DNA of 59,874 nucleotides from Elusimicrobiota bacterium (GCA_030651035.1 JAUSCK010000076.1:1-59874), one strand, 5' to 3'. Shown: positions 1 through 14,014, numbered from the stretch's first letter. The notes: a model not told the origin generated them from the letters alone. Translations and numbers: made by a program.

Positions 1-311
1 TCTCCTCCTAACCGCGGATACAAGCCTAAGGTCATTGTATAATTAAAACCCAACCCAAGCAAGTAAAGAAAACACCTGCCCCAAAAACTTCCTCTCAACA
101 ATAAAAAGAACAGAAAAATACGGAAAAGCACACAAAAAGAAGGTAAGAGTCGCTCGTAGAGGTGCTATAGTACTATAATGTAAAGTACAAATAGGATGCA
201 TACAGCAAAACTAGACCATTAAAGTATAAAAAGCACGTAGCGATTTGTCATACTAGGCATTAACGACGAAAGCAGCAGGCAAAAAACCTCGTAGCAGTAC
301 CGGGTGCCATA

Positions 312-1304
312 ATGGGATTAAAAGAGTATCTTAGGTCACAAACTTTAATCAACCGTAAGTTGCGAATACGCTCAGGCAGAATCCTGCACAGGGTGCACGT
401 AGAGCTAACTGGCTCATTACTGCTTATATTAATCGCTATATGGGCAATACATAGCAAAAAAGAGATAAGAGTTCCGAATATTACGGGCAAATCCATGGCA
501 GAAGCCAAACAGATACTTTCCAAAGCCCGTTTAGTTCTGAGAATAGCTGGCTACAAATACGATGAGTCCGTCCACAAAGACATCGTATTATATCAGACTC
601 CCGACGCAGGAATGTCCGTACGTGAAGGCCGGATAGTAAAAGTGCTTTTCAGCAAGGGCTGTGAATTAGTTGCCGCCCCTAATTTAAGCGGACTCCCTTT
701 GCGCTCTGCAAAATTATTACTGAGTAAACATCAACTTTTACTAGGTGAGGTTTCCGAAAGCTATTCATTGAAGGCAACGACAGGAACAATACTTACACAA
801 AACCCCCCCACAGATCAGAGTGTACCCAAAAACACCTTGGTAAAAGTTGCAATTTCTGCCGGTATCCCTCCTCCAGGAATAGTATTAATGCCCGATTTTC
901 GTCAAAAAGAAAAAGACGAGGCTGAGCAGTGGGCGTCCGAGAATAGCGCACAAATTAATATAGCCGAGGATCCCGGTTCCGCTTTGCCAGGTGGAACAAT
1001 AATAGATCAACAACCCGATGCCGACTCTGTTCTCTCGGCAGATTCAGAAATAATAATAACCGTTAGTTCGAACAAATCCGTTTCAGACTATGATAGGGTA
1101 TTTCAGGTGCACCACGAGCTAGCAGAAAGCGGCGCGCCGCAGCATATCCGCATGGAGGTACACGGGCAGCATGGGAGCAGAGAAATCTTTAACGGATTAC
1201 GTAACCCAGGAGCTAAAATAGATGTATCCATCCCATATGCCGGAGAAGCAAAGGTGCTAATATTTGCAAACGGCATCCTTGTAGAGGAACGAGAATTAAA
1301 ATGA
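312..1304 (+). CDS. PASTA domain-containing membrane protein (three PASTA repeats, no kinase domain)
   Basis: Hydrophobic N-terminal stretch (SLLLILIAIWAI), then three PASTA-like starts (VPNITGKSMAEAKQIL, APNLSGLPLRSAKLLL, MPDFRQKEKDEAEQWA), each followed by QxP motifs. Start codon uncertain; no clear SD. Confidence 0.8.
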   Translation: MGLKEYLRSQTLINRKLRIRSGRILHRVHVELTGSLLLILIAIWAIHSKKEIRVPNITGKSMAEAKQILSKARLVLRIAGYKYDESVHKDIVLYQTPDAGMSVREGRIVKVLFSKGCELVAAPNLSGLPLRSAKLLLSKHQLLLGEVSESYSLKATTGTILTQNPPTDQSVPKNTLVKVAISAGIPPPGIVLMPDFRQKEKDEAEQWASENSAQINIAEDPGSALPGGTIIDQQPDADSVLSADSEIIITVSSNKSVSDYDRVFQVHHELAESGAPQHIRMEVHGQHGSREIFNGLRNPGAKIDVSIPYAGEAKVLIFANGILVEERELK

Positions 1305-1526
1305 ACCGTTGTCTGTCTCGATATTACGAGAATATTTTTTTACAAACTCGTACATTTTTATAGAGGTGCTAGTAGTATATACGAGGAATATTTACACTTA
1401 TTTGAAAGGTGGCTCCGCTCAAGAAGCTTTAAATGGTCTTTTGCCCTGTGGTTGGCAAAAATCGCGCCGTTGCATGGCTAAAAACAACCGCGTATACGAA
1501 ACATGGTGAGGCCATATCCCACATCC

Positions 1527-2261
1527 TTATGGTGTATTTTTAATTACACGGAACAGTTCTAGTATTCGTGCGGACAGTTTTTTAGGTAGCTCTATACTAA
1601 TTACGGCGTAAAGGTCGCCACGCCCACCCTCTGGCAGCGGCATGCCTTTTCCTTTAAGGCGAAGCCTCTTCCCTGAGGAGGTCCCGGGCGGAAGCTTAAT
1701 CTTGACCTCACCGTCAGGAAGCGCTGCCGAAATCTTTGTCCCCAGAGCCGCATCCCAGGGCGTTACCGGAACTTTAACATCGATGTCGTCGCCATTTACA
1801 ACCACTCCTTCTTCAGGAGCTATGCGTATTTTAAGAAACAAGTCGCCGGTACTCGCGCCGATAGTTTTACCCTGGCCGCGCAATCGTAGAATTTTGCCGC
1901 CACGGATGTCCTTGGGGAATTTCACGTTTATATTTCTTGTAACCGGTTTGCGTCCGTCACGTGAAGCGAGAGAGATCATTTTGCTGTCACCTTTAATAAT
2001 ATCTTCAAGCGTAAGCTGCAAATCCGCCTCCTGATCAAGATCGGAGCGACTGCTCATTAAGGGCTCCGCCCCATCTTTCTTGCGGCATTCCCCCGCCTCT
2101 TCCCTATCTTTAGATCCGCATTCTGGGCATCTGGTATCGCCGCAACTAAAACAATAACATGTTTTACACTTTCCACATTCATAAACTCTAAACCAAGTAC
2201 CCCCGGCCAGTCCGCCGTCAGGTTTATGCCCGCAATTCGGGCACTTATTAAACTTCGTCAT
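1527..2261 (-). CDS. Zn-finger + DnaJ C-terminal (CbpA-like) domain protein, lacking a J domain
   Basis: N-terminus has four CxxC pairs (CPNC, CGKC, CFSC, CPEC). C-terminal two-thirds match the DnaJ_C pattern (LRLRGQG...GDLFLKI...VPVTPWDAALG...GTSSGKRLRLKGKG...GDLY). No HPD motif. Start moved to ATG 2261 because GGAGG lies at 2270-2266. Confidence 0.75.
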   Translation of the reverse strand: MTKFNKCPNCGHKPDGGLAGGTWFRVYECGKCKTCYCFSCGDTRCPECGSKDREEAGECRKKDGAEPLMSSRSDLDQEADLQLTLEDIIKGDSKMISLASRDGRKPVTRNINVKFPKDIRGGKILRLRGQGKTIGASTGDLFLKIRIAPEEGVVVNGDDIDVKVPVTPWDAALGTKISAALPDGEVKIKLPPGTSSGKRLRLKGKGMPLPEGGRGDLYAVISIELPKKLSARILELFRVIKNTP

Positions 2262-2378
2262 GTAACCTCCTTCAAACAACTTACTGCCTTACCAATGCTG
2301 TCGTTGCCGCTTGAAAAGGACGAGCCTGACGTGAAAAAAGTGACCTGCGGTTTTTCCCTAAAAACTGGCACACTAGAA

Positions 2379-4763
2379 TTATGCCGTCTCCACCCATAGC
2401 AACTCATTGCCCTTTGTAATAATTTGACCTTGCTCTTTCCATTTTAAAATTTGCTCTCTTGCCAGGGGAAGCTTGCTTAAAGCATCTCTTGGAGACAATT
2501 TACACTCCAAAACAAGATAGCCGGAAAACGCCTGTAGAAGATCTGATTCAGGAATTTCCCGTGTGTGGAAGTTATCTGAATCGTTGAATGTCTCCTGCAT
2601 AATTGCGAATGCTTTATCTAAACTTTTACACTCATTAGTATACTCCGGGGTAGATTTTGGCCCAAAAAAGCGATTAATGGCGGCTTTTATCCGCTCACCC
2701 CTGAAAAGCCATTCGTTAGGGCCGTCCACATATGCCATTTTAAGCTCCGCCCCCGGCGGGTATTCTCTGGGCGGCTTGACATTGGTTCCCCGGCAGCGCT
2801 CAAAAACAACTCTGCTGAAAAATAAAGCGTGATCGAAGTTCGCAAAGTCGAAGTCAACTGCAATGAACTTAGCGTTCAGGATAGTTGCATTTTTAAAGGA
2901 AAAATGTGAAAGATCACGTCTTTTACTATCAGCAATTGGGCGAAATTCCATATCCTCGATTCTTTTCCCCTCATAAGCATCTTTTTTAAGATAGTCATGC
3001 AATTGCAAGCCTCGGACAATGTTTTCTGACACAATTCCTAACGGGTTGTTTCCTGCGGCTTCGAGGACATCCTTGCGCTTATCAAGGGACGGTAGCTCTG
3101 TATCTATTAGCAGCGCTAGTTGGTGAAACACCTCTTCCGGGATGTTTTTCCCCCATCCCATGAGAAGTCTTTTTTCACTAGGGAATATTCTATCCCCCGT
3201 AATGTCTCTAAGCAAAAACCTCGCGAAATAGTACGCGGCAAAAACCTCGTGTGGGAACGGAGAATCTACTGTTTGAAATGGTCCGCTCGCGAGCGATTCC
3301 GCAGAATTCGACTCAATTTCGCCTAAATATTCGGTCAGCAACTCTTTATACCATTCCGCTATGGCGCCTACTGATATTCCTTCAAGTATTTTCCTGTAGT
3401 AACCTACGGCAAAAACCTCATAGGCTTTATCAAATTGCGCCCCATCTAGTTCTTTATGCTTAAGGCGCTCCCGGGAAACCATAAGCTTGGCAGCTTCTTT
3501 TATAAATTCGTATTTATTTGTAGGACGCTTGCCATATGTGTACATTCGCCTGAGGGATTCCAGATATACCGGGGTCTGGAATAATTCCTGCAGCTCAGGA
3601 TTGTTTATAAACTCTGCCGCCCACGCAACAAACGTTGCCGAACTTGTTTTCTCGGGGGGGTTTTTTTCGATCCAATTCTCTATGTCATATTTACGGAATT
3701 TCTCTACGCGAAACATGTTGCTTGTCACCTTGGTGCCCTTATTGCGAATATCACCTGCTAATTTCAAATGTCCGGCCGTCTGGCGTATAAAAGTGTCCCG
3801 CCCGGTTAAGATTGTTTTTACTCCGTGGATATGCGTAGCATGCGCGTTCATTAAAATGGCATACGATTTTTTAGCAACCGGGGTCTCCCCGCGCATCATT
3901 TCATCATACCCATCAAATATAAGCACTATTTCCCCGATCCTCCATAACTGCAAAAGAGCATTTTTTGTTATTCGGATCTCATTGCCCGCTGGCTCCTTTT
4001 GCATCAACTCTATATGCCTTCTGATCATTTCCTCCATATCAGCAGGCGAATTTTCCGAAAACTGTATCAAAAGCGGCGCCCTTGCGTTTGGCTCATTTTT
4101 CGTATATGACATATACATGCTATCGCACATGATCATTGCAGAAATTGTTTTACCTATACCTGCGGGACCGATTATTGTGGTTAAATCATTCTGGCCGCTA
4201 CTATAATACTCCGTCAAGTGTTTTGCGTGAAATGCTTTCGCCTGAGCCTCAGGCTTGTCCTCATAATTTTCATTAACTTCTATGAACCGTGGCGTTATTT
4301 GATACAGTTTCGACATTCTTGAATATATCCACCCCTGCTGCGCATAGAGAAAGGGAGAAAGAAACTCATAATACAGTTCATGTGCCGTTCCGTACCTAGG
4401 AGCTAGTTTAAGTATTTTCTCAAACCCTGTCCTGAGCACCTGCTCCGTCTCTCTCCAGTTTCTTTGTTTTGTCCATTCCTTAGCCAAAAGAATCCTTACG
4501 ATGTCTGGCTGGTGCTCAGCAATATTTTCAAAGTAAGCATCGCTCTCGAAAAGATTAGATGCAGTTTCATGCCTGATCACATTGATAATAGGACAGTCCC
4601 CACGCAGATCTTTAATACATAGTGTTTTCTCGTCAAGAACACTATCCCTATAAAAGCTTTCAAATTCTGCTTTATTTTCTCCGAGCGGATCTTTATTAGG
4701 GTGGAGGTACGCAAAGTAAAACTCGGCAATCGGGCGCAAGTATCCGGCAGGTTCATTGGCCAT
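2379..4763 (-). CDS. NACHT/STAND-family NTPase with pentapeptide-like C-terminal region
   Basis: Walker A GPAGIGKT, NACHT-type Walker B LIFDGYDE, sensor ILTGR, later PVYL. C-terminal LSHFSFKNATILNAKFIAVDFDFANFDHALF resembles pentapeptide repeats. Starts 2 nt after the stop of the upstream gene. Confidence 0.75.
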   Translation of the reverse strand: MANEPAGYLRPIAEFYFAYLHPNKDPLGENKAEFESFYRDSVLDEKTLCIKDLRGDCPIINVIRHETASNLFESDAYFENIAEHQPDIVRILLAKEWTKQRNWRETEQVLRTGFEKILKLAPRYGTAHELYYEFLSPFLYAQQGWIYSRMSKLYQITPRFIEVNENYEDKPEAQAKAFHAKHLTEYYSSGQNDLTTIIGPAGIGKTISAMIMCDSMYMSYTKNEPNARAPLLIQFSENSPADMEEMIRRHIELMQKEPAGNEIRITKNALLQLWRIGEIVLIFDGYDEMMRGETPVAKKSYAILMNAHATHIHGVKTILTGRDTFIRQTAGHLKLAGDIRNKGTKVTSNMFRVEKFRKYDIENWIEKNPPEKTSSATFVAWAAEFINNPELQELFQTPVYLESLRRMYTYGKRPTNKYEFIKEAAKLMVSRERLKHKELDGAQFDKAYEVFAVGYYRKILEGISVGAIAEWYKELLTEYLGEIESNSAESLASGPFQTVDSPFPHEVFAAYYFARFLLRDITGDRIFPSEKRLLMGWGKNIPEEVFHQLALLIDTELPSLDKRKDVLEAAGNNPLGIVSENIVRGLQLHDYLKKDAYEGKRIEDMEFRPIADSKRRDLSHFSFKNATILNAKFIAVDFDFANFDHALFFSRVVFERCRGTNVKPPREYPPGAELKMAYVDGPNEWLFRGERIKAAINRFFGPKSTPEYTNECKSLDKAFAIMQETFNDSDNFHTREIPESDLLQAFSGYLVLECKLSPRDALSKLPLAREQILKWKEQGQIITKGNELLWVETA

Positions 4764-4765
4764 CG

Positions 4766-5620
4766 CTATTTCTCCGTACTCTGAGCAGATTTGTTTAGAA
4801 TAACCCGCGCTGACGCATCCATTTCCTCTATTAGCTTAGCCGCCCAAGCGTCATTCCCAGCTCCCCACAAGGCAAGTAACCTAACATTCGGTGGACGGTT
4901 GTGTGTAACCTTTTCTATTTCGGGATGTCCTCCCCATCCCACTTCTACCGCCCATAGATCTTCCCCGTCAGTATTTCTTACTTGAGTGTCTTCCTTCCTG
5001 GCAAGACTAAATGTGAACCCGGGAATTTCCTCGTAAATCTTCTTTTTCACGCTATCAAAATCAACAGCGCGCCCAGCCCTGAATCCCCATATTTTGAAAG
5101 GCTGATTCTTGCGGTATAAATAGAGTTTTTCAATCGGGCGCAACCCGGAAAATGCTTTCAGTTCAGAAAATGTTTTCAAGGTATGCTTGAGGGCACTTCC
5201 GGAGTCGGTAGAATAGGCTTGCCATTTAGGCGTCAATTGTGGAAGCGGCACTGATGCTACCGCCTCAGTGATTAACGGAATCCATTCTTCAGGAAACTTC
5301 TTAGAGTCCAATATGGTTAAGGTAGGGAGAAGGCTGCGCAAATCGCTGTCATGCTTTGCAAGCGTAAAGAGAAATGATCTTAAAACTTGGCCTACGGTAT
5401 GCGCCCCGCTGCATAGTGGTCCCCCTCCGGGCATTCGACTAAACCTCGAAAAGATCTCACCGCTGTAAAAGGCCTTTAAATTTGGACTAATCTTAAGCAA
5501 TGGATTCAGTGCGGCGAGCAGATTTATAAGGTCTCTTTCTTTACTTCGGTTCTCTTTCTCGAAAAAGAATAAGTCGGGATCCAGGCACACGCCGCGAAAC
5601 ATCGGGTTAACAGTAGTCAT
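4766..5620 (-). CDS. Hypothetical protein, 284 aa, in an operon between an ABC-type ATPase and a NACHT NTPase
   Basis: Long ORF with 6-nt and 2-nt gaps to its neighbours on the same strand. No family confidently recognised. Confidence 0.75.
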   Translation of the reverse strand: MTTVNPMFRGVCLDPDLFFFEKENRSKERDLINLLAALNPLLKISPNLKAFYSGEIFSRFSRMPGGGPLCSGAHTVGQVLRSFLFTLAKHDSDLRSLLPTLTILDSKKFPEEWIPLITEAVASVPLPQLTPKWQAYSTDSGSALKHTLKTFSELKAFSGLRPIEKLYLYRKNQPFKIWGFRAGRAVDFDSVKKKIYEEIPGFTFSLARKEDTQVRNTDGEDLWAVEVGWGGHPEIEKVTHNRPPNVRLLALWGAGNDAWAAKLIEEMDASARVILNKSAQSTEK

Positions 5621-5626
5621 CTCGTA

Positions 5627-7318
5627 CTAGCTCCCCATCTTTTTATATCCGGCCTGTAATGCTTTAACAGAGTCTTTCGAGGCTTGGTCAAAAAAGCCAT
5701 CGGGCCATTCTTCTATACGCCCATATTTGTCAATGATGATAGGCTGCATATCCGAGTATTTTCCATTTTTATGAATAAAGTATATCCCGACCTTGTCAGA
5801 TAATTCTGTTCCCGGGGATTGGGCGATATGTATTGCCAAGCGATTAATTATATGCTCGCTATGAGTTTCCAGCAATATTTGTCTCCCCGCCGATATGATG
5901 GAAACAAAGAAATCTGATAGTTTTGACTGCAGCATAGGGTGCAGGTGCAGCTCCGGCTGTTCTATTAAAAGGGTATCCCCGCGTTTTGATAGCAGCCCGC
6001 TAACAAGTATCGGCAACACTTGGCTCGCTCCAACCCCTACCTCATTAAGCGTCCGACTTTTTGTGGAGCCGATAGGAATAATGTTGAAAGTATCGCCACC
6101 TGCCACTGATTCACCTATCTCCAGATATCGCACCCAGGCGTTTACCGCTTCATTTAAGGTTGTTTTAGTATCCCGGCGAAAAACTTGCGATTGGTCAGGA
6201 GGCGCAAAATAGCTGATTATCTGCTCCCCCTGCGCCTCTAAGACTTTGGCGGCAAATTCCCCCTCAACGCCCACGTCATAAGGATTTCGCGCAGATTCAT
6301 AGGCATAAGAGAGGGCAGGTTTTCGCCTAAGCGGGCCCAGATACCGAATCCTGTTATTAACAGTTGAAAGAATAAGAATAGCTACTCCAAGTTCCGCAGA
6401 TAAATCATTAATCGGGATTGCCTCGTACACATATTCTTTAAAATCTGCTGATTTTCTCTGCCTCAAGAAATTAATTAACTTTTCCGCGTTCTCCACAGAA
6501 GATATGTCTCCCATGAATTCTTCCCAAATAGGCTGCATTTCAGGCTTGCATAAGGGGAGCGAGAAGGCTACCCTGAATGCCTGGAATATGGTTTCAAAGT
6601 GGGGGGCCAACCCAATCTGCCCGTACAACTTACGCGTTAAATATTCAACGGCATCAAACCGGGTCACAACATATTCTGGAATAAGGTCTTGTGATGAGAA
6701 CTGAACCCCGGCTATACTGGCACTCGCAAACAATATATCGTCCAAGCCTGTCGGCGAATCACCTTTGAACCGAGACTTTGCAAGCCAACCGGGGGCAAAT
6801 TGAACATTGCGAAACTCGGCAACGTATGGAACACACTTGACCCCGGCGTTGACAATTCCGGGCAGGACAGTCTCTGAATGGGCTGGGTCCCAGGAAAGGC
6901 TTATCCCGGAAATTAAATTGCCGCTGGTATCCTGGCAATCTATGACCATAGACAGGAAATGAGGAACCTTGTCTGGACCATAGGACAATCCAGCGGCATC
7001 GAATTTTATTGTTAATTCAGCACGGGTAGCGGTATGAGTATCAGAATGCGGGAGGTCTACCGTTATTGAAATCTCAGCTGTTTTTTCCTGGGAATCTTCG
7101 TTTATAAGATTTTCTACTTTCCCAAGCTGCACAAACTCGCCATTTAGTATTAGTGGGGCAAAACCTTTTGTCATGCATGACTGTGCAATTACAGCAAGCC
7201 CATGCAGAATGGTGCTTTTACCTCCGCTATTCGTGCCGGTAAAAACGGTAAGATCCTTTAGGTCGAAAGTTTTGTGTTCAAAGGATTTAAACCTACCCAG
7301 AGAAATTTTCCTAAACAT
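5627..7318 (-). CDS. ABC-type (AAA_15/AAA_21-like) ATPase with DUF3696-like C-terminus
   Basis: Walker A FTGTNSGGKST, signature-like VGVGASQ, Walker B LLIEQPELHLHP, H-loop ETHSEH, C-terminal IDKYGRIEEWPDGFFDQ typical of DUF3696 proteins. Start set at ATG 7318 with GGAGG at 7327-7323. Confidence 0.85.
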   Translation of the reverse strand: MFRKISLGRFKSFEHKTFDLKDLTVFTGTNSGGKSTILHGLAVIAQSCMTKGFAPLILNGEFVQLGKVENLINEDSQEKTAEISITVDLPHSDTHTATRAELTIKFDAAGLSYGPDKVPHFLSMVIDCQDTSGNLISGISLSWDPAHSETVLPGIVNAGVKCVPYVAEFRNVQFAPGWLAKSRFKGDSPTGLDDILFASASIAGVQFSSQDLIPEYVVTRFDAVEYLTRKLYGQIGLAPHFETIFQAFRVAFSLPLCKPEMQPIWEEFMGDISSVENAEKLINFLRQRKSADFKEYVYEAIPINDLSAELGVAILILSTVNNRIRYLGPLRRKPALSYAYESARNPYDVGVEGEFAAKVLEAQGEQIISYFAPPDQSQVFRRDTKTTLNEAVNAWVRYLEIGESVAGGDTFNIIPIGSTKSRTLNEVGVGASQVLPILVSGLLSKRGDTLLIEQPELHLHPMLQSKLSDFFVSIISAGRQILLETHSEHIINRLAIHIAQSPGTELSDKVGIYFIHKNGKYSDMQPIIIDKYGRIEEWPDGFFDQASKDSVKALQAGYKKMGS

Positions 7319-7529
7319 TGTTCCTCCTGCATAACACTTTGCCGCAAAACCAGCCAACCTGTAGAAAAAGCGGTCGAATATCAGGGAAGCCCTCTAACCA
7401 TCTATATTACTTTTCCCCTGCTTGGTCAATAGCTATCTAAAAAGGGCTTTATTTCCAGTCTAATGCGTCCAGGCTAGGCGTATTTCTCCAGTCAAAACGT
7501 CTTGCTATTAACAATGACTAGACCACTTA

Positions 7530-8813
7530 TTACCTTTCACTACCCTTTGTGCGCCATATTATATGGCTAGACATTTTTATTACGCTCTTTTTCTTCGCCA
7601 ATGCCGCCTCCGCTGTAGCGCTCATTATGGTTATGCTGCCAAGCGAAAGGTCCCCTTTATGCTCAGAAAGAGCTGCCGCAACTTCGTCTGTAAGCATTAC
7701 CAGACCACAGAGGCTCAAACGCCCCTTGTTTAAAGCCAAAGACTCCGCAGCTTTTTTTGAAAGCGTGGTTAGACTAGGAAGGATTAATTCGCCAGTATGC
7801 TGAGAGAGGGCCGCCGCGGCGTAATCTGTTAGCGTAATAAGACCGCCTAACAGGAGTCCCCCTTGCTTCTTTGCTAAAGCATCAGCCGCCTGGTCTGTAA
7901 GCGTGGTTAAACCGCTGAGAGCGAGGCGACTGTCAAGGTCAAAGAGACTGTCGCTCCCCGTGTGCTTCGCTAACGCCTCTGCTACCTCGCTGTTGAGCGT
8001 GGTCAGACCTTCTAGATGCACCCCGCCCTCACACTTTGCCAGGGTTTTTGCCGCCCCGGAGGAAAGCGCGGTCAGCCCATTAAGGTGGATTTCGCCTCTA
8101 TTTTTCGCCAGCGCTTCCGCCGCGTGGTCGCTTAATGTGGTCAAACCGTTAAGGTAGAGCTCGCCTTCGTGCTTTCCCAGCGCCTCCGCCACTTCGTCCG
8201 TTATCGCAGTTAAGCCGTCCAGTGAGAGCCCGCCGCAGGGGTCTTTGTGTTTAGCCAGCGCCGTTGCAATTTTACCTGAAATTTCTGTCAAGCCATTGAG
8301 GGTGAGCCCGCCTACCCCGCCCTCCTCGCACTCATTCGACGCCAGCGCCTCAGCAGCTTTATCTGTAAGCGTGGTCAGGCCGTCAAGAAAAAGCCCTCCG
8401 ACATTTTTGGCCAGTGACTCTGCGGCTTGGTCAGTCAGCATGAGCAATCCATTAAGCAAGAGCGTTTGTTTGTGCTTGCCCAAAGCTGCCGCTGCTTTGT
8501 CACTCAATGAAGTTAACCCGTTAAGAAAAAGATCGTCATTATTTTTAGCTAATGATTCAATCGCGGTATCTGTAAGCGTTACCAGACCGTCGAGCCTTAG
8601 CCCGCACCCCCTGTGTTTTCCCAGAGCTTTCGCAACTTGATCGGTAAGCGAGCGCAGGCCGTTGAGTTCGAGTATGTTTTGATTCTTCGCAAGCGCCTCT
8701 GCCACTTGTACCGTGATGGCAGTCAAACCGTTTAGAGATAGATCGTCTTGCTCTTCCACCAGCTCCGCCGCTGCCTCTACCGTTATTTTAGTCAAGTCGT
8801 TATGGTCTCTCAT
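7530..8813 (-). CDS. Leucine-rich-repeat-like solenoid protein (16 repeats of about 23 aa)
   Basis: Sixteen tandem units with consensus LxLxGLTxLTDxAAEALAKxxGx counted in the translation, plus a partial N-terminal unit. No signal peptide. Confidence 0.85.
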   Translation of the reverse strand: MRDHNDLTKITVEAAAELVEEQDDLSLNGLTAITVQVAEALAKNQNILELNGLRSLTDQVAKALGKHRGCGLRLDGLVTLTDTAIESLAKNNDDLFLNGLTSLSDKAAAALGKHKQTLLLNGLLMLTDQAAESLAKNVGGLFLDGLTTLTDKAAEALASNECEEGGVGGLTLNGLTEISGKIATALAKHKDPCGGLSLDGLTAITDEVAEALGKHEGELYLNGLTTLSDHAAEALAKNRGEIHLNGLTALSSGAAKTLAKCEGGVHLEGLTTLNSEVAEALAKHTGSDSLFDLDSRLALSGLTTLTDQAADALAKKQGGLLLGGLITLTDYAAAALSQHTGELILPSLTTLSKKAAESLALNKGRLSLCGLVMLTDEVAAALSEHKGDLSLGSITIMSATAEAALAKKKSVIKMSSHIIWRTKGSER

Positions 8814-8903
8814 GCCGCAATCCCCCAGTCCTGTATACCACTCTATTGTACCCTTTTCTTTTATTTTCAGAACGCTAAAGCCTGTGCGTCTTTGCAGGCC
8901 TCC

Positions 8904-9842
8904 CTAGCGCAGATGCGAAGCCTTTGGATCGTGTTTTTTATAGTTCTCGGCGGCAAGATCCTGCGACGTAGTGACATAACAATAGAAGCACCCTCCGGGG
9001 CAGGTGTTGTCCATACCTATGTCCACGGTCTTCACGCAGCGGCAACTTTCCCGCGACGGGCCGGCAGGAAAGGCGGCTATCTGCCAATTTATTACAGGGC
9101 CATACGGCTCAAACAATTCGGCGCCGCAGCATTGGGCTGGCGTGAATTTATCCGTATATTCGCTGTTGCAGCAGACGTGCAACTGGATGCCGTAGGCTTT
9201 GGCTATAGCTTCCAGTTCATGGAGCAGCGTTATCTCCTGCTCACCTACCGCGCGCAAGTTAGGATATTTTTTATATATCGCCTCGCGCTGCTTATTAGTC
9301 TGCCGCCAGGCGATTTCGTGGCCTTCCGGGACTTTGTCTATAGCTTTCTGGTAGGGCTCGGTAAAACTAACGTTCACAACGCGCGTATGGCCGGCCAGGC
9401 TCGCCGCGATTTCTTTGAAGTTTTTGCGGTGCCAGGCATGGGTATAGACCTTGGTTGAGATTAAAATCGGGTCATAGCGCCATTGAATACACTCTGGCGC
9501 CGGGAGAGATTTGGCGACTTTTATAAAGTCTTTTATAACCGCCGCGCGGGCCGGGATTCCTGACTCTATATCTTTCCCGTAGCCGGTTATTGTGTACTGG
9601 AAAACATAGGGCACCTTTTCTTTCCGCAGGGCTTTCAGCTCGGCTTGAAAAGGGCCTGAATACTTAGTCCAAAAAAGATATCCCAACACCTCCGCAGGCT
9701 CAAGGGAAGCCCGGAAGAAACCTGCAGGCCCCCCGCCGAACACGGTTCTGTATTCTGCGAATCCAGCTTTCCTCCGGGCCCGGAACCACTTGGCGTAATA
9801 ATGCGGGATGTCAGTCCGCCGGGAAGCGCTTACAATATGCAT
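8904..9842 (-). CDS. DUF1848-family protein (radical-SAM-like, C-terminal CxxxCxxC)
   Basis: Family-typical N-terminus IVSASRRTDIP, QWRYDPI, and C-terminal DIGMDNTCPGGCFYCY. Confidence 0.85.
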   Translation of the reverse strand: MHIVSASRRTDIPHYYAKWFRARRKAGFAEYRTVFGGGPAGFFRASLEPAEVLGYLFWTKYSGPFQAELKALRKEKVPYVFQYTITGYGKDIESGIPARAAVIKDFIKVAKSLPAPECIQWRYDPILISTKVYTHAWHRKNFKEIAASLAGHTRVVNVSFTEPYQKAIDKVPEGHEIAWRQTNKQREAIYKKYPNLRAVGEQEITLLHELEAIAKAYGIQLHVCCNSEYTDKFTPAQCCGAELFEPYGPVINWQIAAFPAGPSRESCRCVKTVDIGMDNTCPGGCFYCYVTTSQDLAAENYKKHDPKASHLR

Positions 9843-9888
9843 ACGTTAAATCCTATACAATACAGATTCCGCCTTATGAATTCTTTTA

Positions 9889-10770
9889 TTACTTTCCCTT
9901 GTCCTGCACAACCTCGATCCGCGCCACTATCTCCAGGAAGAACTCAGGGGACCAGAGTGCGAGCGATGATTTGTCCTTAACGAAGCGATCCACCTCTTGC
10001 CGGGCCTGGTTCACATCCAGCTTATTGATAGCGGTATGCAGCAGGCCGAGCAGGTCGGGCCGGGTCAGGGGGGCGGCGCCGGTCCAGTCGCCGGAGTGCC
10101 GCAGGCGTGCCTCCAGGTGGCTAAGGCGCAACCGCGGATGATGGCCGAGATACCAGACCAGGTCATACCAGTCGCGGCCCTTAACCCGCGTCTTCCACTT
10201 CCGGCACAGCAGCGCGTGCATCTTTCCGGCGAAGAGGTCGGGCAGGCTGTATACCCGCACGGCAAAGGGCACCGGCAGCAGGACCGCGCGGCTCTCCGTC
10301 TCGAACCCGCCGGGCGGAGCGGTGTCCACCTCCAGCTTGATCTTCAGCACTTCCTGCGCGTGCAGCTGCCGGGCCAGGCCGGCGTTGATCTTGACGACGA
10401 TTAACTGTTGCAGGGTGTTGGCTTTCAGAAAGGCGGATTCGATGGCGGATTGCGGGTTGCGCTTGCGGGCCTCAAAAGAGACGTCAAACCCAAAGCTGTC
10501 CAGTTCCCGGCGAAGCGCATCCCCATAGGCGCCGAGGGAGAAGCCCCTGTCTGGCGCAAGGAGCGAAAAATCCAGATCCTCGGAATATCGGTCCAGCCCG
10601 TATAGCACACGCAGAGCTGTGCCGCCGTAGAAAGCGGCGTGCTCAAAGAACTTGCCGCGCCAGAGGCCCAGCAAAGCGATCTGCTGGAGGATTTCCCGCA
10701 GCGCGCTGACATATTCGTCGCTGGTCCGGCAGTTATAGCGCTCGATCATTTGTTGGATGGCTTCGTTCAT
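9889..10770 (-). CDS. abiEii: AbiEii-family nucleotidyltransferase toxin (type IV TA)
   Basis: FYGGTAL, RYSEDLDF, KLEVD, GKMHALL and KGRDWYDL motifs. Start moved to ATG 10770 (MNEAIQQ) with GAGG upstream. Confidence 0.9.
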   Translation of the reverse strand: MNEAIQQMIERYNCRTSDEYVSALREILQQIALLGLWRGKFFEHAAFYGGTALRVLYGLDRYSEDLDFSLLAPDRGFSLGAYGDALRRELDSFGFDVSFEARKRNPQSAIESAFLKANTLQQLIVVKINAGLARQLHAQEVLKIKLEVDTAPPGGFETESRAVLLPVPFAVRVYSLPDLFAGKMHALLCRKWKTRVKGRDWYDLVWYLGHHPRLRLSHLEARLRHSGDWTGAAPLTRPDLLGLLHTAINKLDVNQARQEVDRFVKDKSSLALWSPEFFLEIVARIEVVQDKGK

Positions 10771-10795
10771 TGATGCCTCGCGTTTATGTTGCTTG

Positions 10796-11446
10796 TTATA
10801 ATGGACCACCCGATTGCCGCGCCAGGCGCCGCACCAGCATGGTGATCTTTCTCGCCGCGAAGGCGCCGGCAATGGCGGCGAGCCGGCCCGTGTCCAGCGA
10901 AGACAGCTGTTGCGCGTCCAGGCGCAGATCTTCGGTCAGGTAGGCGTTAAATTCCTTGTGGCTGGCCGGACTAAAGCGCTTGTCCGTCCACACCTTGTCC
11001 ACAAGCGCCTTCTCGGGCGAGGCCATCAGCCACCGGGCATCGCCTTCGCCCGACCAACGGATGCCGGGCGCATAGCGTCGCGGCGGAAAGTGCCGGTAGG
11101 TGAACACCCCGAACGGCGTGTTGAACCGCCGGCTCCCGCCTGTGGTGACCGACGTCACGTTCTCCACGCGCTCCGGTAGCATTCCGTAGTGGCTCAAGGC
11201 ATAGTCGAGGCTGACATACGAGGGGCCGTAGATCAGATTGGCCAGAAGTTCGCGGCTAAGCGGGGCGCGGCGGTAGCGCTCGCCTAACACGTAGAGCCCC
11301 TTGCGCACACGGATCAAACTGCCGTCGGCCAACAGCCTGCCGATACGATCCCTCGGCTTGGCATAGCCATGCAGATAGGACACCAGTTGCTGGTAGTCCA
11401 GCACATCTGTGCGCGCCTGTTCACGGATGTCCATTATTGTAATCAC
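10796..11446 (-). CDS. abiEi: AbiEi-type antitoxin / transcriptional regulator
   Basis: N-terminal wHTH-like segment (LIRVRKGLY), then YGPSYVSLDYALSHYGMLPE and ASPEKALVD. Directly upstream of abiEii. Start is GTG 11446 or ATG 11434. Confidence 0.85.
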   Translation of the reverse strand: MITIMDIREQARTDVLDYQQLVSYLHGYAKPRDRIGRLLADGSLIRVRKGLYVLGERYRRAPLSRELLANLIYGPSYVSLDYALSHYGMLPERVENVTSVTTGGSRRFNTPFGVFTYRHFPPRRYAPGIRWSGEGDARWLMASPEKALVDKVWTDKRFSPASHKEFNAYLTEDLRLDAQQLSSLDTGRLAAIAGAFAARKITMLVRRLARQSGGPL

Positions 11447-11452
11447 GGTAAG

Positions 11453-11481
11453 AGTTTACAGTATTATCGGTGGTATGTCCA
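11453..11481 (-). promoter_or_regulatory. Predicted sigma70 promoter of abiEi-abiEii
   Basis: Minus strand reads TGGACA (11481-11476), 17 nt, TAAACT (11458-11453), 6 nt, GTG (11446). Confidence 0.6.
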
Positions 11482-11497
11482 GTATAGATGGACATAC
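11473..11497. promoter_or_regulatory. Inverted repeat overlapping the abiE -35 box, candidate AbiEi operator
   Basis: Perfect 9-bp arms: GTATGTCCA (11473-11481), 7-nt spacer, TGGACATAC (11489-11497). Confidence 0.6.
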
Positions 11498-11654
11498 TGC
11501 CATAATTACCACAGACTACGGGACGCTACACCATAACTCGATACTACCAAAAAATCTCTACTGTTATGCCCACCATCCGGCCTAATTTAGTAGAATAACA
11601 GGGTTAACGGCTAAAAAGGCCGATATATATCAATTTATATATTTAGAGGATAAT

Positions 11655-12725
11655 ATGCCTGAAAAAGATAAGAAAATGCGTTTCGGGGTGATTGGGGCCG
11701 GCAAGCTGGGCGGGTTCCACACCAATACGCTTTCCAAAATGCCCGAGGTGGAGCTGGTGGGCGTCTCCGACCCCAATTTGCTGAACGCGCAGGTGCTGGC
11801 CTGGCGGCACAACTGCGTGGCCTACAAGACGGAGGAAGAGCTGCTGGGCCAGGTGGACGCCATAGTGGTGGCCGCCCCCACCGAGTACCACGCCGAGATA
11901 GGCATAAAGGCGCTGGAGGCCGGGGTGCACGTGCTGATGGAAAAGCCCATCGCCAATTCAGAAGAGGGCGCCCGCAAGCTGCTGGAGCTGGCTGAAAAGA
12001 AGAAGGTGGTCCTGCAGGTGGGCCACTCCGAGCGCTTCAACTCCGCGGTGGTGGAGGCGATGAAGCACGTGAAGAACCCGCGCTATATCACCATAGAGCG
12101 CCTGGGCCCCTACGACCCGCGCGTGGCCGCCACCGGCGTCACGCTGGACCTGATGATCCACGACCTGGACATCCTCCTGACGATGATGGATTCCGAGATA
12201 GAGAAATTCGAGGCGATCGGCGCCAGCATGCTCTCCAACCACGAGGACATCTGCAACGTGCGCATCAAGTTCAAAAACGGCTGCCTGGCAGACGTCACCG
12301 CCAGCCGCGCCAGCATGGAGGCCTCCCGCCGCATGCGCATCTACCAGCAGGATTCTTACATCTCGGTGGACTATGTGAGCGCCCGCCTGAAGATCTACAC
12401 CAAGAAGAACCCGGTGATAAAGTCCCTCAAGGACATAGAGATCACGTACCCCAAGTTGGAGGCGAAGCAGCCGATAAGGGAAGAGCTTTACCACTTTATT
12501 GACTGCATAAAGACCGCCAAAACGCCCACGCCCAGCGGCGAGAAGGGCCTGAAGGCGCTGCGCCTGGCCCTGGAGATCACCGACCAGATGCGGCGCTTCG
12601 AGGTTTCCGGCTCCAAGACGGAAGAAGCGGAGGAATCCCTGTCCCGCAACCTATCAGACATCGGCAAGGCGACTAAAGTTCTCGTAGAAGAGGGACTAAA
12701 AAACGCGGGAATAGATAAGCACTGA
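11655..12725 (+). CDS. Gfo/Idh/MocA-family NAD-dependent oxidoreductase (possibly GnnA-like)
   Basis: GVIGAGKLG Rossmann motif, EKP motif, GHSERFN and DLMIHDLD. Directly upstream of lpxB. Confidence 0.9.
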   Translation: MPEKDKKMRFGVIGAGKLGGFHTNTLSKMPEVELVGVSDPNLLNAQVLAWRHNCVAYKTEEELLGQVDAIVVAAPTEYHAEIGIKALEAGVHVLMEKPIANSEEGARKLLELAEKKKVVLQVGHSERFNSAVVEAMKHVKNPRYITIERLGPYDPRVAATGVTLDLMIHDLDILLTMMDSEIEKFEAIGASMLSNHEDICNVRIKFKNGCLADVTASRASMEASRRMRIYQQDSYISVDYVSARLKIYTKKNPVIKSLKDIEITYPKLEAKQPIREELYHFIDCIKTAKTPTPSGEKGLKALRLALEITDQMRRFEVSGSKTEEAEESLSRNLSDIGKATKVLVEEGLKNAGIDKH

Positions 12726-12727
12726 TT

Positions 12728-12846
12728 TTCACCGCAGAGGCGCAGAGGTCGCAGAGAACAGAAAAACAAAACATCTTCTTCCTATCAGCTACAATTGATT
12801 TTTTCTACTCTGCCCCACTCCGCGACCTCCGCGACCTCTGCGGTGA
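12728..12846. repeat. Palindromic intergenic repeat element, copy 1
   Basis: Left arm TTCACCGCAGAGGCGCAGAGGTCGCAGAG (12728-12756); imperfect inverted right arm CTCCGCGACCTCCGCGACCTCTGCGGTGA (12818-12846); AT-rich spacer. Confidence 0.85.
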
Positions 12847-12865
12847 TATGCGGCAATTAAATTTT

Positions 12866-14014
12866 ATGGCTATAACCGCACCTACGAACAAGAACATACT
12901 GGTAGTGGCCGGCGATCCTTCGGGCGACTTGCACGCGGCCACCCTTATTAAAGCGCTGCGGGCCAAGGACCCTGAGATCACCGTCACCTCCATGGGCGGG
13001 GTGCGCATGCAGGAAGTCTCCTCGCATTTCATCTACAACCTGGTCTCCGTGGGAGCCGTCGGGTTCGCGGAACCCTTTAAGAATTTTTTTCTCTGGCTCA
13101 AGCTGATAAAGCTGGTGCGCCGCTACATGGAAGACAAGCGGCCGGCCTGCGTGATAGCCGTGGATTTCTACGGCTTCAACAACCAGGTGCTGGGCCTGGC
13201 CGCGCACCGCAAGATACCGGCGTTCTATTACATCAGCCCCCAGGTCTGGGCCTCCCGCCCCGGCCGCGCAGCAAGAATCGCAAAGCTCACGAAAGAGATC
13301 TTCGTCATTTTCCCGTTCGAGGAGGCGCTTTACAAGAAAGTGCAGGGCAACGCCACCTTCGTCGGCCACCCGCTGCTGGACCTCATGCCTGAGCCGGTCA
13401 GCAAGGATTTCCCCCCCGCCGGCGGAGAATGGAAGATAGGCATATTGCCCGGCTCGCGCAAGGCCGAGATCTCGCGCCACCTGCCGCTTTTTGTAAAGGC
13501 TTTCTACCGCATAAAGGAGCAGCATCCCGCGGCCAAGGCTTACCTGTTCGCGGTGCCTGAATTCCCGGACGAGAATATAGTGCCGGCGCTTGAAAGCATC
13601 GAGAAATACTGGTCCAAGGACATAGAGATAGTGCGCGAGAAGGACTACAAGATCCGCTCCCGGATGGATTTCGCCTTCACCTGCTCAGGCACGGCAACCC
13701 TCGAGAACGCGCTGTTGGGCGTGCCGATGGCGGTGGCCTACAAGATGTCGCGCTTCACCTGGGAAATAGCCAAGCGCGTGGCTAACACGCAATACGTATC
13801 GCTGGTCAACATCCTGCTGAAGCGGCCGGTAGTGAAGGAGCTGCTGCAGGAAAAAGCCACCGAGGAGAACCTGGCGCAGGAAGCTTTCTCCTTCATAAAC
13901 AACCCGCCGCGCATGCAGGCCGCCCGCAAGGAGCTTATCGGCCTGCGCGACATGCTGGGCTCGCACGGGGCCGCCGAGCGCGCCGCGCAGAAGATAATCT
14001 CCCACCTGAGCTGA
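12866..14014 (+). CDS. lpxB: Lipid-A-disaccharide synthase
   Basis: VAGDPSGDLHA, VDFYGFN, YYISPQVWASRPGR, FVGHPLLD, LPGSRKAE and SGTATLE motifs. Start is ATG 12866 (ORF track gives 12848). Confidence 0.95.
   Translation: MAITAPTNKNILVVAGDPSGDLHAATLIKALRAKDPEITVTSMGGVRMQEVSSHFIYNLVSVGAVGFAEPFKNFFLWLKLIKLVRRYMEDKRPACVIAVDFYGFNNQVLGLAAHRKIPAFYYISPQVWASRPGRAARIAKLTKEIFVIFPFEEALYKKVQGNATFVGHPLLDLMPEPVSKDFPPAGGEWKIGILPGSRKAEISRHLPLFVKAFYRIKEQHPAAKAYLFAVPEFPDENIVPALESIEKYWSKDIEIVREKDYKIRSRMDFAFTCSGTATLENALLGVPMAVAYKMSRFTWEIAKRVANTQYVSLVNILLKRPVVKELLQEKATEENLAQEAFSFINNPPRMQAARKELIGLRDMLGSHGAAERAAQKIISHLS

Follow-up and report, generated by a model that had tools for sequence, protein, structure and literature searches.

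The contig JAUSCK010000076.1 of an Elusimicrobiota bacterium (GCA_030651035.1 JAUSCK010000076.1:1-59874), taken here as a stretch of 59,874 nucleotides (nt; the window), carries close to one edge three abutting minus-strand genes that we term A, B and C (Table 1). In the order of transcription they encode an ATP-binding cassette (ABC) ATPase of the NsnB family with a C-terminal DUF3696 tail, a sequence orphan, and a divergent NACHT protein, a nucleoside triphosphatase (NTPase) of the signal transduction ATPases with numerous domains (STAND) type that resembles NOD-like receptors (NLRs). A sequence-only reading of the same stretch had described a tight three-gene operon and proposed it as an undescribed anti-phage system. 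Calling of open reading frames (ORFs) confirmed its coordinates and its spacing, with exactly 6 nt between genes A and B (5621-5626) and exactly 2 nt between genes B and C (4764-4765). Gene A probably starts at the ATG at 7318, because AGGAGG lies 4 nt upstream and because the family matches and the aligned homologues begin there; a longer ORF from the TTG at 7357 is unlikely. GGGGAG precedes gene B, whose TAG stop (4766-4768) stands just ahead of the gene C ATG (4761-4763), so that the B-C junction reads as a translationally coupled layout. In a consensus scan, promoter- and terminator-like sites inside the three-gene block were no commoner than in shuffled sequence. Together, the gaps, the ribosome-binding sites and the chance-level internal signals point to a block arranged as one transcript with coupled translation. 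The weak hairpin at the gene C stop occurs in the scan list at chance frequency, the region 3′ of gene C folds no better than its shuffles (z = +1.16), and the hairpin is not convincing as a terminator. The 285-codon frame of gene B would stay open by chance at the local base composition with p ~3e-7.

Table 1. Features of the three-gene block and of its immediate surroundings (aa, amino acids)
Feature	Position	Strand	Description and basis
Gene A	5627-7318	-	563 aa; NsnB-family ABC ATPase with C-terminal DUF3696 tail; Pfam, PADLOC, motifs
Gene B	4766-5620	-	284 aa; sequence orphan in the NsnC/partner position
Gene C	2379-4763	-	794 aa; divergent NACHT (NLR-like STAND) NTPase; Pfam, motifs
Shine-Dalgarno AGGAGG, gene A	7323-7328	-	read from sequence
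Ribosome-binding site GGAG, gene C	4772-4775	-	within the last bases of gene B and 9 nt ahead of the gene C ATG; read from sequence
Promoter-like pair TTGACC...TATAGA	~80-110 nt upstream of gene A		within the 211-nt spacer; inferred only, absent from the consensus-scan list
Weak hairpin and T-run	2367-2385	-	overlaps the gene C stop
Zinc-ribbon/DnaJ_C protein	1527-2261	-	244 aa; Cys-rich N-terminus (CPNC...CGKC...CFSC...CPEC) and DnaJ C-terminal domain PF01556 (1e-35)
PASTA protein	312-1304	+	330 aa; one predicted membrane helix, three PASTA domains, no kinase domain
Repeat protein	7530-8813	-	427 aa; 211 nt upstream of gene A; consists nearly throughout of ~17 copies of a 23-residue repeat

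The domain calls of the sequence-only reading (ABC ATPase-DUF3696, unassigned protein, NACHT) were borne out by Pfam and by motifs. In Pfam, gene A matched AAA_15 (7.7e-23), AAA_21 (5.4e-17) and DUF3696 (1.9e-12), and its best PADLOC model was NsnB (1.1e-75, 253.6 bits), followed by HEC-03 (3.4e-43) and PDC-M55A (2.2e-41). The AriA model (4.8e-25, 87 bits) and the PtuA model (7e-10, 37 bits) scored far lower, the GajA and Old models likewise fell far under NsnB, and the NCBIfam PtuA model, whose cut-off is 500 bits, reached 28 bits. The idea that gene A is a standalone ABC ATPase akin to those of PARIS and Septu therefore gives way to membership of the NsnB family. What the locus shares with PARIS and Septu is the AAA_15/AAA_21 folds and, potentially, their logic, in which oligomers of an ABC ATPase restrain a separately encoded effector and then set it free; it differs in that neither gene B nor gene C matches a DUF4435/Toprim AriB and in that no HNH PtuB match was obtained. 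The motifs of gene A comprise Walker A (GTNSGGKS, residue 28), a signature-like GVGASQ (428), Walker B (LLIEQPE, 450), an H-loop (THS, 485) and WPDGFF (538), every invariant column of a 16-sequence family alignment is kept, and the protein looks functional. About 983 homologues were detected, none of them more than ~32% identical over the full length.

NsnB belongs to Menshen (NsnA-NsnB-NsnC; Millman et al. 2022). Li et al. 2025 (PMC12065111) interpret NsnA (ParB-DUF262) as its sensor, NsnB (ABC ATPase and DUF3696) as its transducer and NsnC (an inactive PIN-like domain, inPIN, and a nuclease) as its effector; in their AlphaFold 3 models, the DUF3696 tails of an NsnB dimer clasp the N-terminal domain of NsnC, and a confident interface of this kind is reported for 23 of 24 NsnB-NsnC models (PMC12065111). 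NsnC is hypervariable, with 35 N-terminal families and 81 ungrouped sequences in addition to 15 effector families, and some NsnC-type partners resist modelling for want of homologues (PMC12065111). Gene A resembles NsnB in its DUF3696 tail, its GxG-type signature and its unusual Walker B, which reads EQ in gene A and EN in the prototype. The gene immediately after it, in the hypervariable NsnC slot, encodes a protein of about the size of NsnC. The locus departs from Menshen in several respects. No NsnA (ParB-DUF262 and ParBDB) lies directly upstream of gene A, where the gene at 7530-8813 has no DUF262 match, and PF03235 (DUF262) had no match in the 96%-complete genome, whereas control genomes do match. 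Gene A carries an insert of ~210 aa that is absent from NsnA-linked ATPases, and a NACHT gene follows. Gene B fits NsnC in position and size (284 aa, 6-nt gap), and comparison with five partner families gave no sequence or profile similarity that would reveal the inPIN-plus-nuclease architecture of NsnC in it.

To place gene A among its relatives, we surveyed 80 reference genome, 80 metagenome and 80 viral contig loci, together with five contexts obtained by exact look-up, with neighbouring genes called by a simple longest-ORF script. Two main classes of ATPase were found. In the first, canonical Menshen, an ATPase of ~390-460 aa is preceded by a DUF262 gene with a DGxQR motif and followed by a protein of ~280 aa. 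In the second, the ATPase is ~600-650 aa long owing to a long insert, no DUF262 gene is present, and a ~340-aa partner family (alignment A2) lies at -20 to +24 nt. Among the 84 evaluable loci with an ATPase score of 185 bits or more to gene A, an A2 partner was present at 76, another tight partner at five, and an NsnA or an upstream DUF262 gene at none; the five look-up contexts gave the same picture. A tightly coupled downstream partner was present at 64 of the 82 genome-derived ATPase loci. Of the 229 loci that could be evaluated, 93 had the module of long-insert ATPase and A2 partner, which occurs in many phyla and also on IMG/VR viral contigs. The A2 family, whose C-terminal motif resembles 'RRDID.E.HLHYW', has no model in Pfam or PADLOC v2, and its profile had no match among PDB sequences.

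Relatives of gene A were found in BREX, restriction-modification and Hma clusters and in viral contigs, and the second-class pair frequently sits inside larger defence clusters, often BREX-like ones. At one locus (L019), a large Walker A protein and a ~950-aa upstream protein, the latter a methyltransferase in the similar cluster L006, are followed by the pair (9001-11965) and directly by PglZ; at L006 itself, the methyltransferase is followed by the pair (6255-9219) and then by SNF2 and SIR2; L024 is a further example of the ATPase and ~340-aa partner module. A co-directional third gene lay within 30 nt of the ATPase-partner pair at 7 of 60 evaluable loci, and the third genes that were identified are parts of other systems, namely PglZ (BREX), an SNF2 helicase, a Schlafen-like protein and a type I R subunit. 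Genes this near one another thus need not make up one system, and the spacing is not decisive here. No NACHT-like ORF (Walker A followed by D[GAS]hDE) was found within 9 kb of the ~240 related ATPase loci, and phmmer searches with gene B or gene C against the ORFs of these loci returned no match. The only STAND neighbour noticed in the survey was at a locus of a Polyangiaceae metagenome-assembled genome (L056, 9001-13341), where a complete, canonical NsnA-NsnB-NsnC set has, 39 nt behind it, the gene for a protein kinase-nSTAND1 protein of 912 aa.

The two-gene arrangement has an experimental precedent in HEC-03, an ABC ATPase and a PIN protein that protect against phage and are both required (Payne et al., 10.1101/2024.01.29.577857). 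HEC-03, the PADLOC candidate PDC-M55 and the A2 module are two-gene, have no NsnA, combine a long-insert ATPase with tight coupling and occur in defence-island or embedded contexts, all of which is reminiscent of genes A and B. Gene A matches the ATPase models of HEC-03 and PDC-M55 less strongly than NsnB, and gene B matches no PADLOC partner model, whereas the HEC-03 partner is a PIN protein. Nor does gene B match the A2 family. Gene A is at most ~32% identical to any ATPase of this class. Only its residues 1-100 and 312-561 align to the hidden Markov models (HMMs) of both classes, so that the insert (residues ~100-312) is lineage-specific. Over these segments, gene A scored 376 bits against an HMM of 82 long-insert sensor-less ATPases and 256 bits against one of 16 NsnA-linked ATPases.

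Gene B had no match in Pfam, in PADLOC (E ≤ 0.1) or in NCBIfam, fragments of it at E values up to 10 likewise drew a blank in Pfam, and no Pfam match to PIN, HNH or DUF4435/Toprim was seen. A word-indexed search of 5.8 billion clusters returned no homologue, and full HMMER over 1.84 billion representatives gave only a 45-residue match (E 2.8e-4), where E values for the large collections are database-wide and relatives of gene B under ~50 bits would escape. The gene is absent from 60 related genomes. An hhalign comparison with A2 reached a probability of 0.2% over 17-20 N-terminal columns only; this non-significant alignment sets 'GVCLDPDLFFF' of gene B against the A2 start 'vIDPxxLa' and is a hint at most. 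The best reading of gene B is nevertheless that it is the partner of the ATPase, a presumed adaptor-plus-effector, because 64 of 82 DUF3696 ATPase loci have a tight partner, because NsnC-type proteins are hypervariable and because the open frame fits exactly into this position.

Gene C matched the Pfam NACHT model (E 8e-6) but, at 26.2 bits, stayed 0.5 bit short of the cut-off of 26.7. Its NACHT region (~190-370) contains GPAGIGKT (199), LIFDGYDE (281) and ILTGR (318) at the expected spacing; the D[GAS]hDE signature separates NACHT from other STAND NTPases (Kibby et al., 10.1101/2022.07.19.500537), and by this motif definition the predicted protein is a NACHT protein. The catalytic motifs of both NTPases of the block are all intact. 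A Pentapeptide_3 match at ~615-660 (0.0033, or 0.0008 on the fragment) is sub-threshold, and neither residues ~370-600 nor the last ~130 residues matched a family. No homologue was found by the word-indexed search, in 60 relatives, in 400 genomes of the phylum or among PDB sequences; PADLOC had no match, and an AlphaFold2 single-sequence model (predicted local distance difference test, pLDDT, 39.1) was unusable. The likeness of gene C to bacterial NACHT (bNACHT) proteins lies in its Walker A, its D[GAS]hDE Walker B, a sensor-1-like TGR, and a weak C-terminal pentapeptide element, pentapeptide repeats being among the C-terminal sensor types of these proteins (10.1101/2022.07.19.500537). Its layout around a central NACHT may correspond to their three-part architecture of N-terminal effector, NACHT and C-terminal sensor, the pentapeptide match being sub-threshold and the N-terminal 190 aa without a match. 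The searches returned no close relative of it. It also differs from bNACHT proteins in its translational coupling to another module; those tested so far are for the most part encoded by solitary genes (10.1101/2022.07.19.500537).

The sequence-only reading also held that the block is AT-rich and that AbiE lies near, and these two points fared differently. All three genes have a GC content of 0.44-0.47 and a GC content at third codon positions (GC3) of 0.45-0.47, compared with a GC3 of 0.77-0.84 in host genes a few kilobases away (AbiEii, a GFO-family oxidoreductase and LpxB), which upholds the compositional claim. The two genes to the left, encoding the PASTA and zinc-ribbon/DnaJ_C proteins, also have low GC3, which indicates that a putative foreign piece covers at least bases 1 to ~7500, up to the contig end. 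An AbiEii gene (9889-10872; 4.9e-33) does lie 2.5 kb from the block; on account of its host-like GC3, however, it is placed outside the acquired piece. Bases 1-13,000 were scanned for Rfam families, tRNAs and repeats, which revealed no island borders and no RNA components. The locus is one instance, from a metagenome-assembled genome (96% complete) at a contig edge.

The explanation that we rank highest, to which as a whole we give an even chance, is that genes A and B form a Menshen/HEC-03-type pair, gene B being an extreme and so far unique variant of the hypervariable partner protein, and that the pair is co-transcribed with an independent bNACHT-type gene C in a horizontally acquired defence islet. 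The layout, the ATPase family, the NACHT motifs, the foreign composition and the absence of the trio elsewhere are observed; that gene B is the partner, how the pair would work and that gene C acts on its own are inferred. Two units are favoured because the sensor-less relatives and, by experiment, HEC-03 are two-gene, and because tested bNACHT proteins are mostly solitary genes; a three-part unit finds no comparative support, since related loci have no NACHT neighbours and no homologues of genes B and C were found. The first unit would be genes A and B, a sensor-less pair. By extension from the NsnB-NsnC, PARIS and Septu models, the gene A ATPase would oligomerise and use its C-terminal DUF3696 tails to keep its partner inactive. 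The large lineage-specific insert of gene A would probably read a phage cue, and this cue would alter the ATP state of the ATPase and lead to release or activation of the gene B protein, which would then damage nucleic acid or another essential target and so abort infection. The second unit would be gene C, most likely solitary in action like most bNACHT proteins, sensing through its C-terminal region, including the pentapeptide stretch, and signalling through its N-terminal region.

Several observations weigh against this explanation. In a quick maximum-likelihood tree, gene A sits on a long branch (1.6) as sister to the NsnA-linked ATPase clade (approximate likelihood ratio test, aLRT, 92), within a well-supported 27-row clade and outside the sensor-less class; gene A could therefore have descended from a three-gene Menshen that lost NsnA. 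The class HMM scores and the tree disagree on the exact position of gene A. The assignment of gene B as the partner draws on position and size and not on homology: a profile comparison with five partner families of related loci gave nothing significant, and an AlphaFold2 single-sequence model (pLDDT 42.5) was unusable. Residues 1-190 of gene C had no family match and no recognisable effector domain in a lenient Pfam fragment scan, so gene C may need an effector from another gene. The 2-nt B-C junction with its internal ribosome-binding site is the layout expected for subunits of one system, and a lone metagenome-assembled genome supplies the only instance of the locus.

These points bear on an alternative that we consider unlikely, in which all three genes form one system and the NACHT protein, in the place of NsnA, would sense phage and oligomerise, and would thereby prompt the ATPase to let go of the gene B effector. 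The 6-nt and 2-nt junctions, the internal ribosome-binding sites, the lack of internal promoter or terminator signals above chance and the equal GC3 of the genes are all as this alternative would have it, and so are a NACHT protein with no recognisable effector domain, a genome with no DUF262 gene and a tree that puts gene A beside NsnA-linked ATPases; Menshen sensor and effector modules, moreover, swap freely (PMC12065111). By contrast, the ~240 related loci offer no NACHT-like neighbour and no second instance of the trio, and the only STAND neighbour, at L056, comes after a complete NsnA-NsnB-NsnC set. The nearest ATPase relatives are two-gene modules with no separate sensor, HEC-03 needs two genes only, the gene order is unlike that of Menshen, where the sensor is first, and no common or pairing domain was detected between genes B and C or genes A and C. 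We regard as improbable the more specific scenario in which the NACHT protein was recruited as the sensor of a Menshen-type relay, with STAND and ABC switches in series and with the neighbouring DnaJ_C protein perhaps acting as a client-binding co-sensor.

The B-C junction, at 2 nt tighter than the 6-nt A-B junction, together with a NACHT N-terminus that has no enzymatic domain and the effector-associated adaptor domains reported at bacterial NACHT N-termini (10.1101/2022.07.19.500537), raises another prospect, that gene B works for the NACHT protein, be it instead of the ATPase or in addition to it, as a separately encoded effector or adaptor, like bacterial NLR-effector pairs. This appears very improbable: DUF3696 ATPases nearly always need a downstream partner (64 of 82 loci), which gene A would otherwise not have, and no homotypic domain was detected between gene B and the NACHT N-terminus, whereas known pairs share an effector-associated domain. 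It is also improbable that the block is not active in defence, either because genes B and C are passengers of a mobile islet that evolve fast or are in decay, or because the block serves another conflict or regulatory role. Genes B and C are orphans in the searches made, both structure predictions were unusable, the NACHT score falls just under the Pfam cut-off and the locus comes from the edge of a contig in a single metagenome-assembled genome, all of which could be taken this way. Decay is, however, difficult to reconcile with three long, intact and exactly abutting frames, each with a ribosome-binding site, of which the shortest would be open by chance with only the low probability given above, and with the intact catalytic motifs of both NTPases; the occurrence of the ATPase relatives in BREX, restriction-modification and Hma clusters and in viral contigs likewise speaks for defence.

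We return to the explanation with two units in one transcript. The defence context is well supported, and the stretch is a plausible defence locus in which a new three-part system is not demonstrated. As judged from its proteins, it is a DUF3696-ATPase core with a novel partner beside a novel divergent NACHT protein and not a categorically new system. Of the proposed undescribed anti-phage system, the defence context thus stands, and the novelty is reduced in that gene A belongs with the NsnB ATPases of Menshen, a named system, and genes A and B correspond to a known kind of module. The sequence-only reading had named a match to a described system and a failure of the three genes to co-occur elsewhere as findings that would tell against it, and both were encountered in part: PADLOC left genes B and C without a match and strongly assigned gene A to a component of a named system, and the trio was found nowhere else, with no NACHT-like neighbour at the ~240 related loci.

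It is more likely that the genes do not act together. If they are separate, the locus would provide a further example of the DUF3696-ATPase core tolerating complete replacement of its partner, alongside a NACHT protein so divergent that it escapes the present models for finding defence genes, gene C having no PADLOC match. If the three genes did act together, bacteria would wire STAND and ABC immune NTPase switches in series and the Menshen scaffold would accept sensors besides ParB-DUF262; with the NACHT protein replacing NsnA, this would be the first system with a STAND switch and an ABC-ATPase switch in series. The wider value of the survey lies in the module of long-insert DUF3696 ATPase and ~340-aa partner, which is widespread and uncatalogued.

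The zinc-ribbon/DnaJ_C gene lies 99 nt after gene C on the same strand, with a GC3 of 0.465 and no convincing terminator between the two. The protein has no J domain. Over its DnaJ_C part it shares 49-61% identity with a ~316-aa CbpA/DnaJ-like protein that is present in every genus relative and of which this genome has its own copy (contig C292); the zinc-ribbon N-terminus of the island protein was traced to one relative (G010), where the gene context was uninformative. Because bNACHT25 depends on host DnaJ for sensing phage proteins (PMC12169576), the island DnaJ_C protein could, by analogy, act as a co-sensor or a decoy for the gene C NACHT protein. The analogy is imperfect in that bNACHT25 requires J-domain function (PMC12169576), whereas the island protein has no J domain.

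Upstream of gene A, the repeat protein at 7530-8813 shows a leucine-rich repeat-like pattern (LxLNGLTxLTDxxAEALAK) with a DNA period of 69 nt and an intermediate GC3 (0.54), and it has no family match. As a candidate for a hidden NsnA it was rejected on its 23-residue repeats, the lack of a DUF262 match and its higher GC3. Beyond it, the AbiEii gene adjoins a weak AbiEi-like gene (E 0.005), and directly downstream of AbiEii lies a gene for a DUF1848 protein (PADLOC RTasDUF1848, 1.5e-36), the whole minus-strand group spanning 8904-11446; no reverse transcriptase gene is evident near this group. At the other end of the low-GC islet, the gene for the PASTA protein is convergent with the defence genes, and the PADLOC PD-T4-6 models match this protein in its PASTA tail only.

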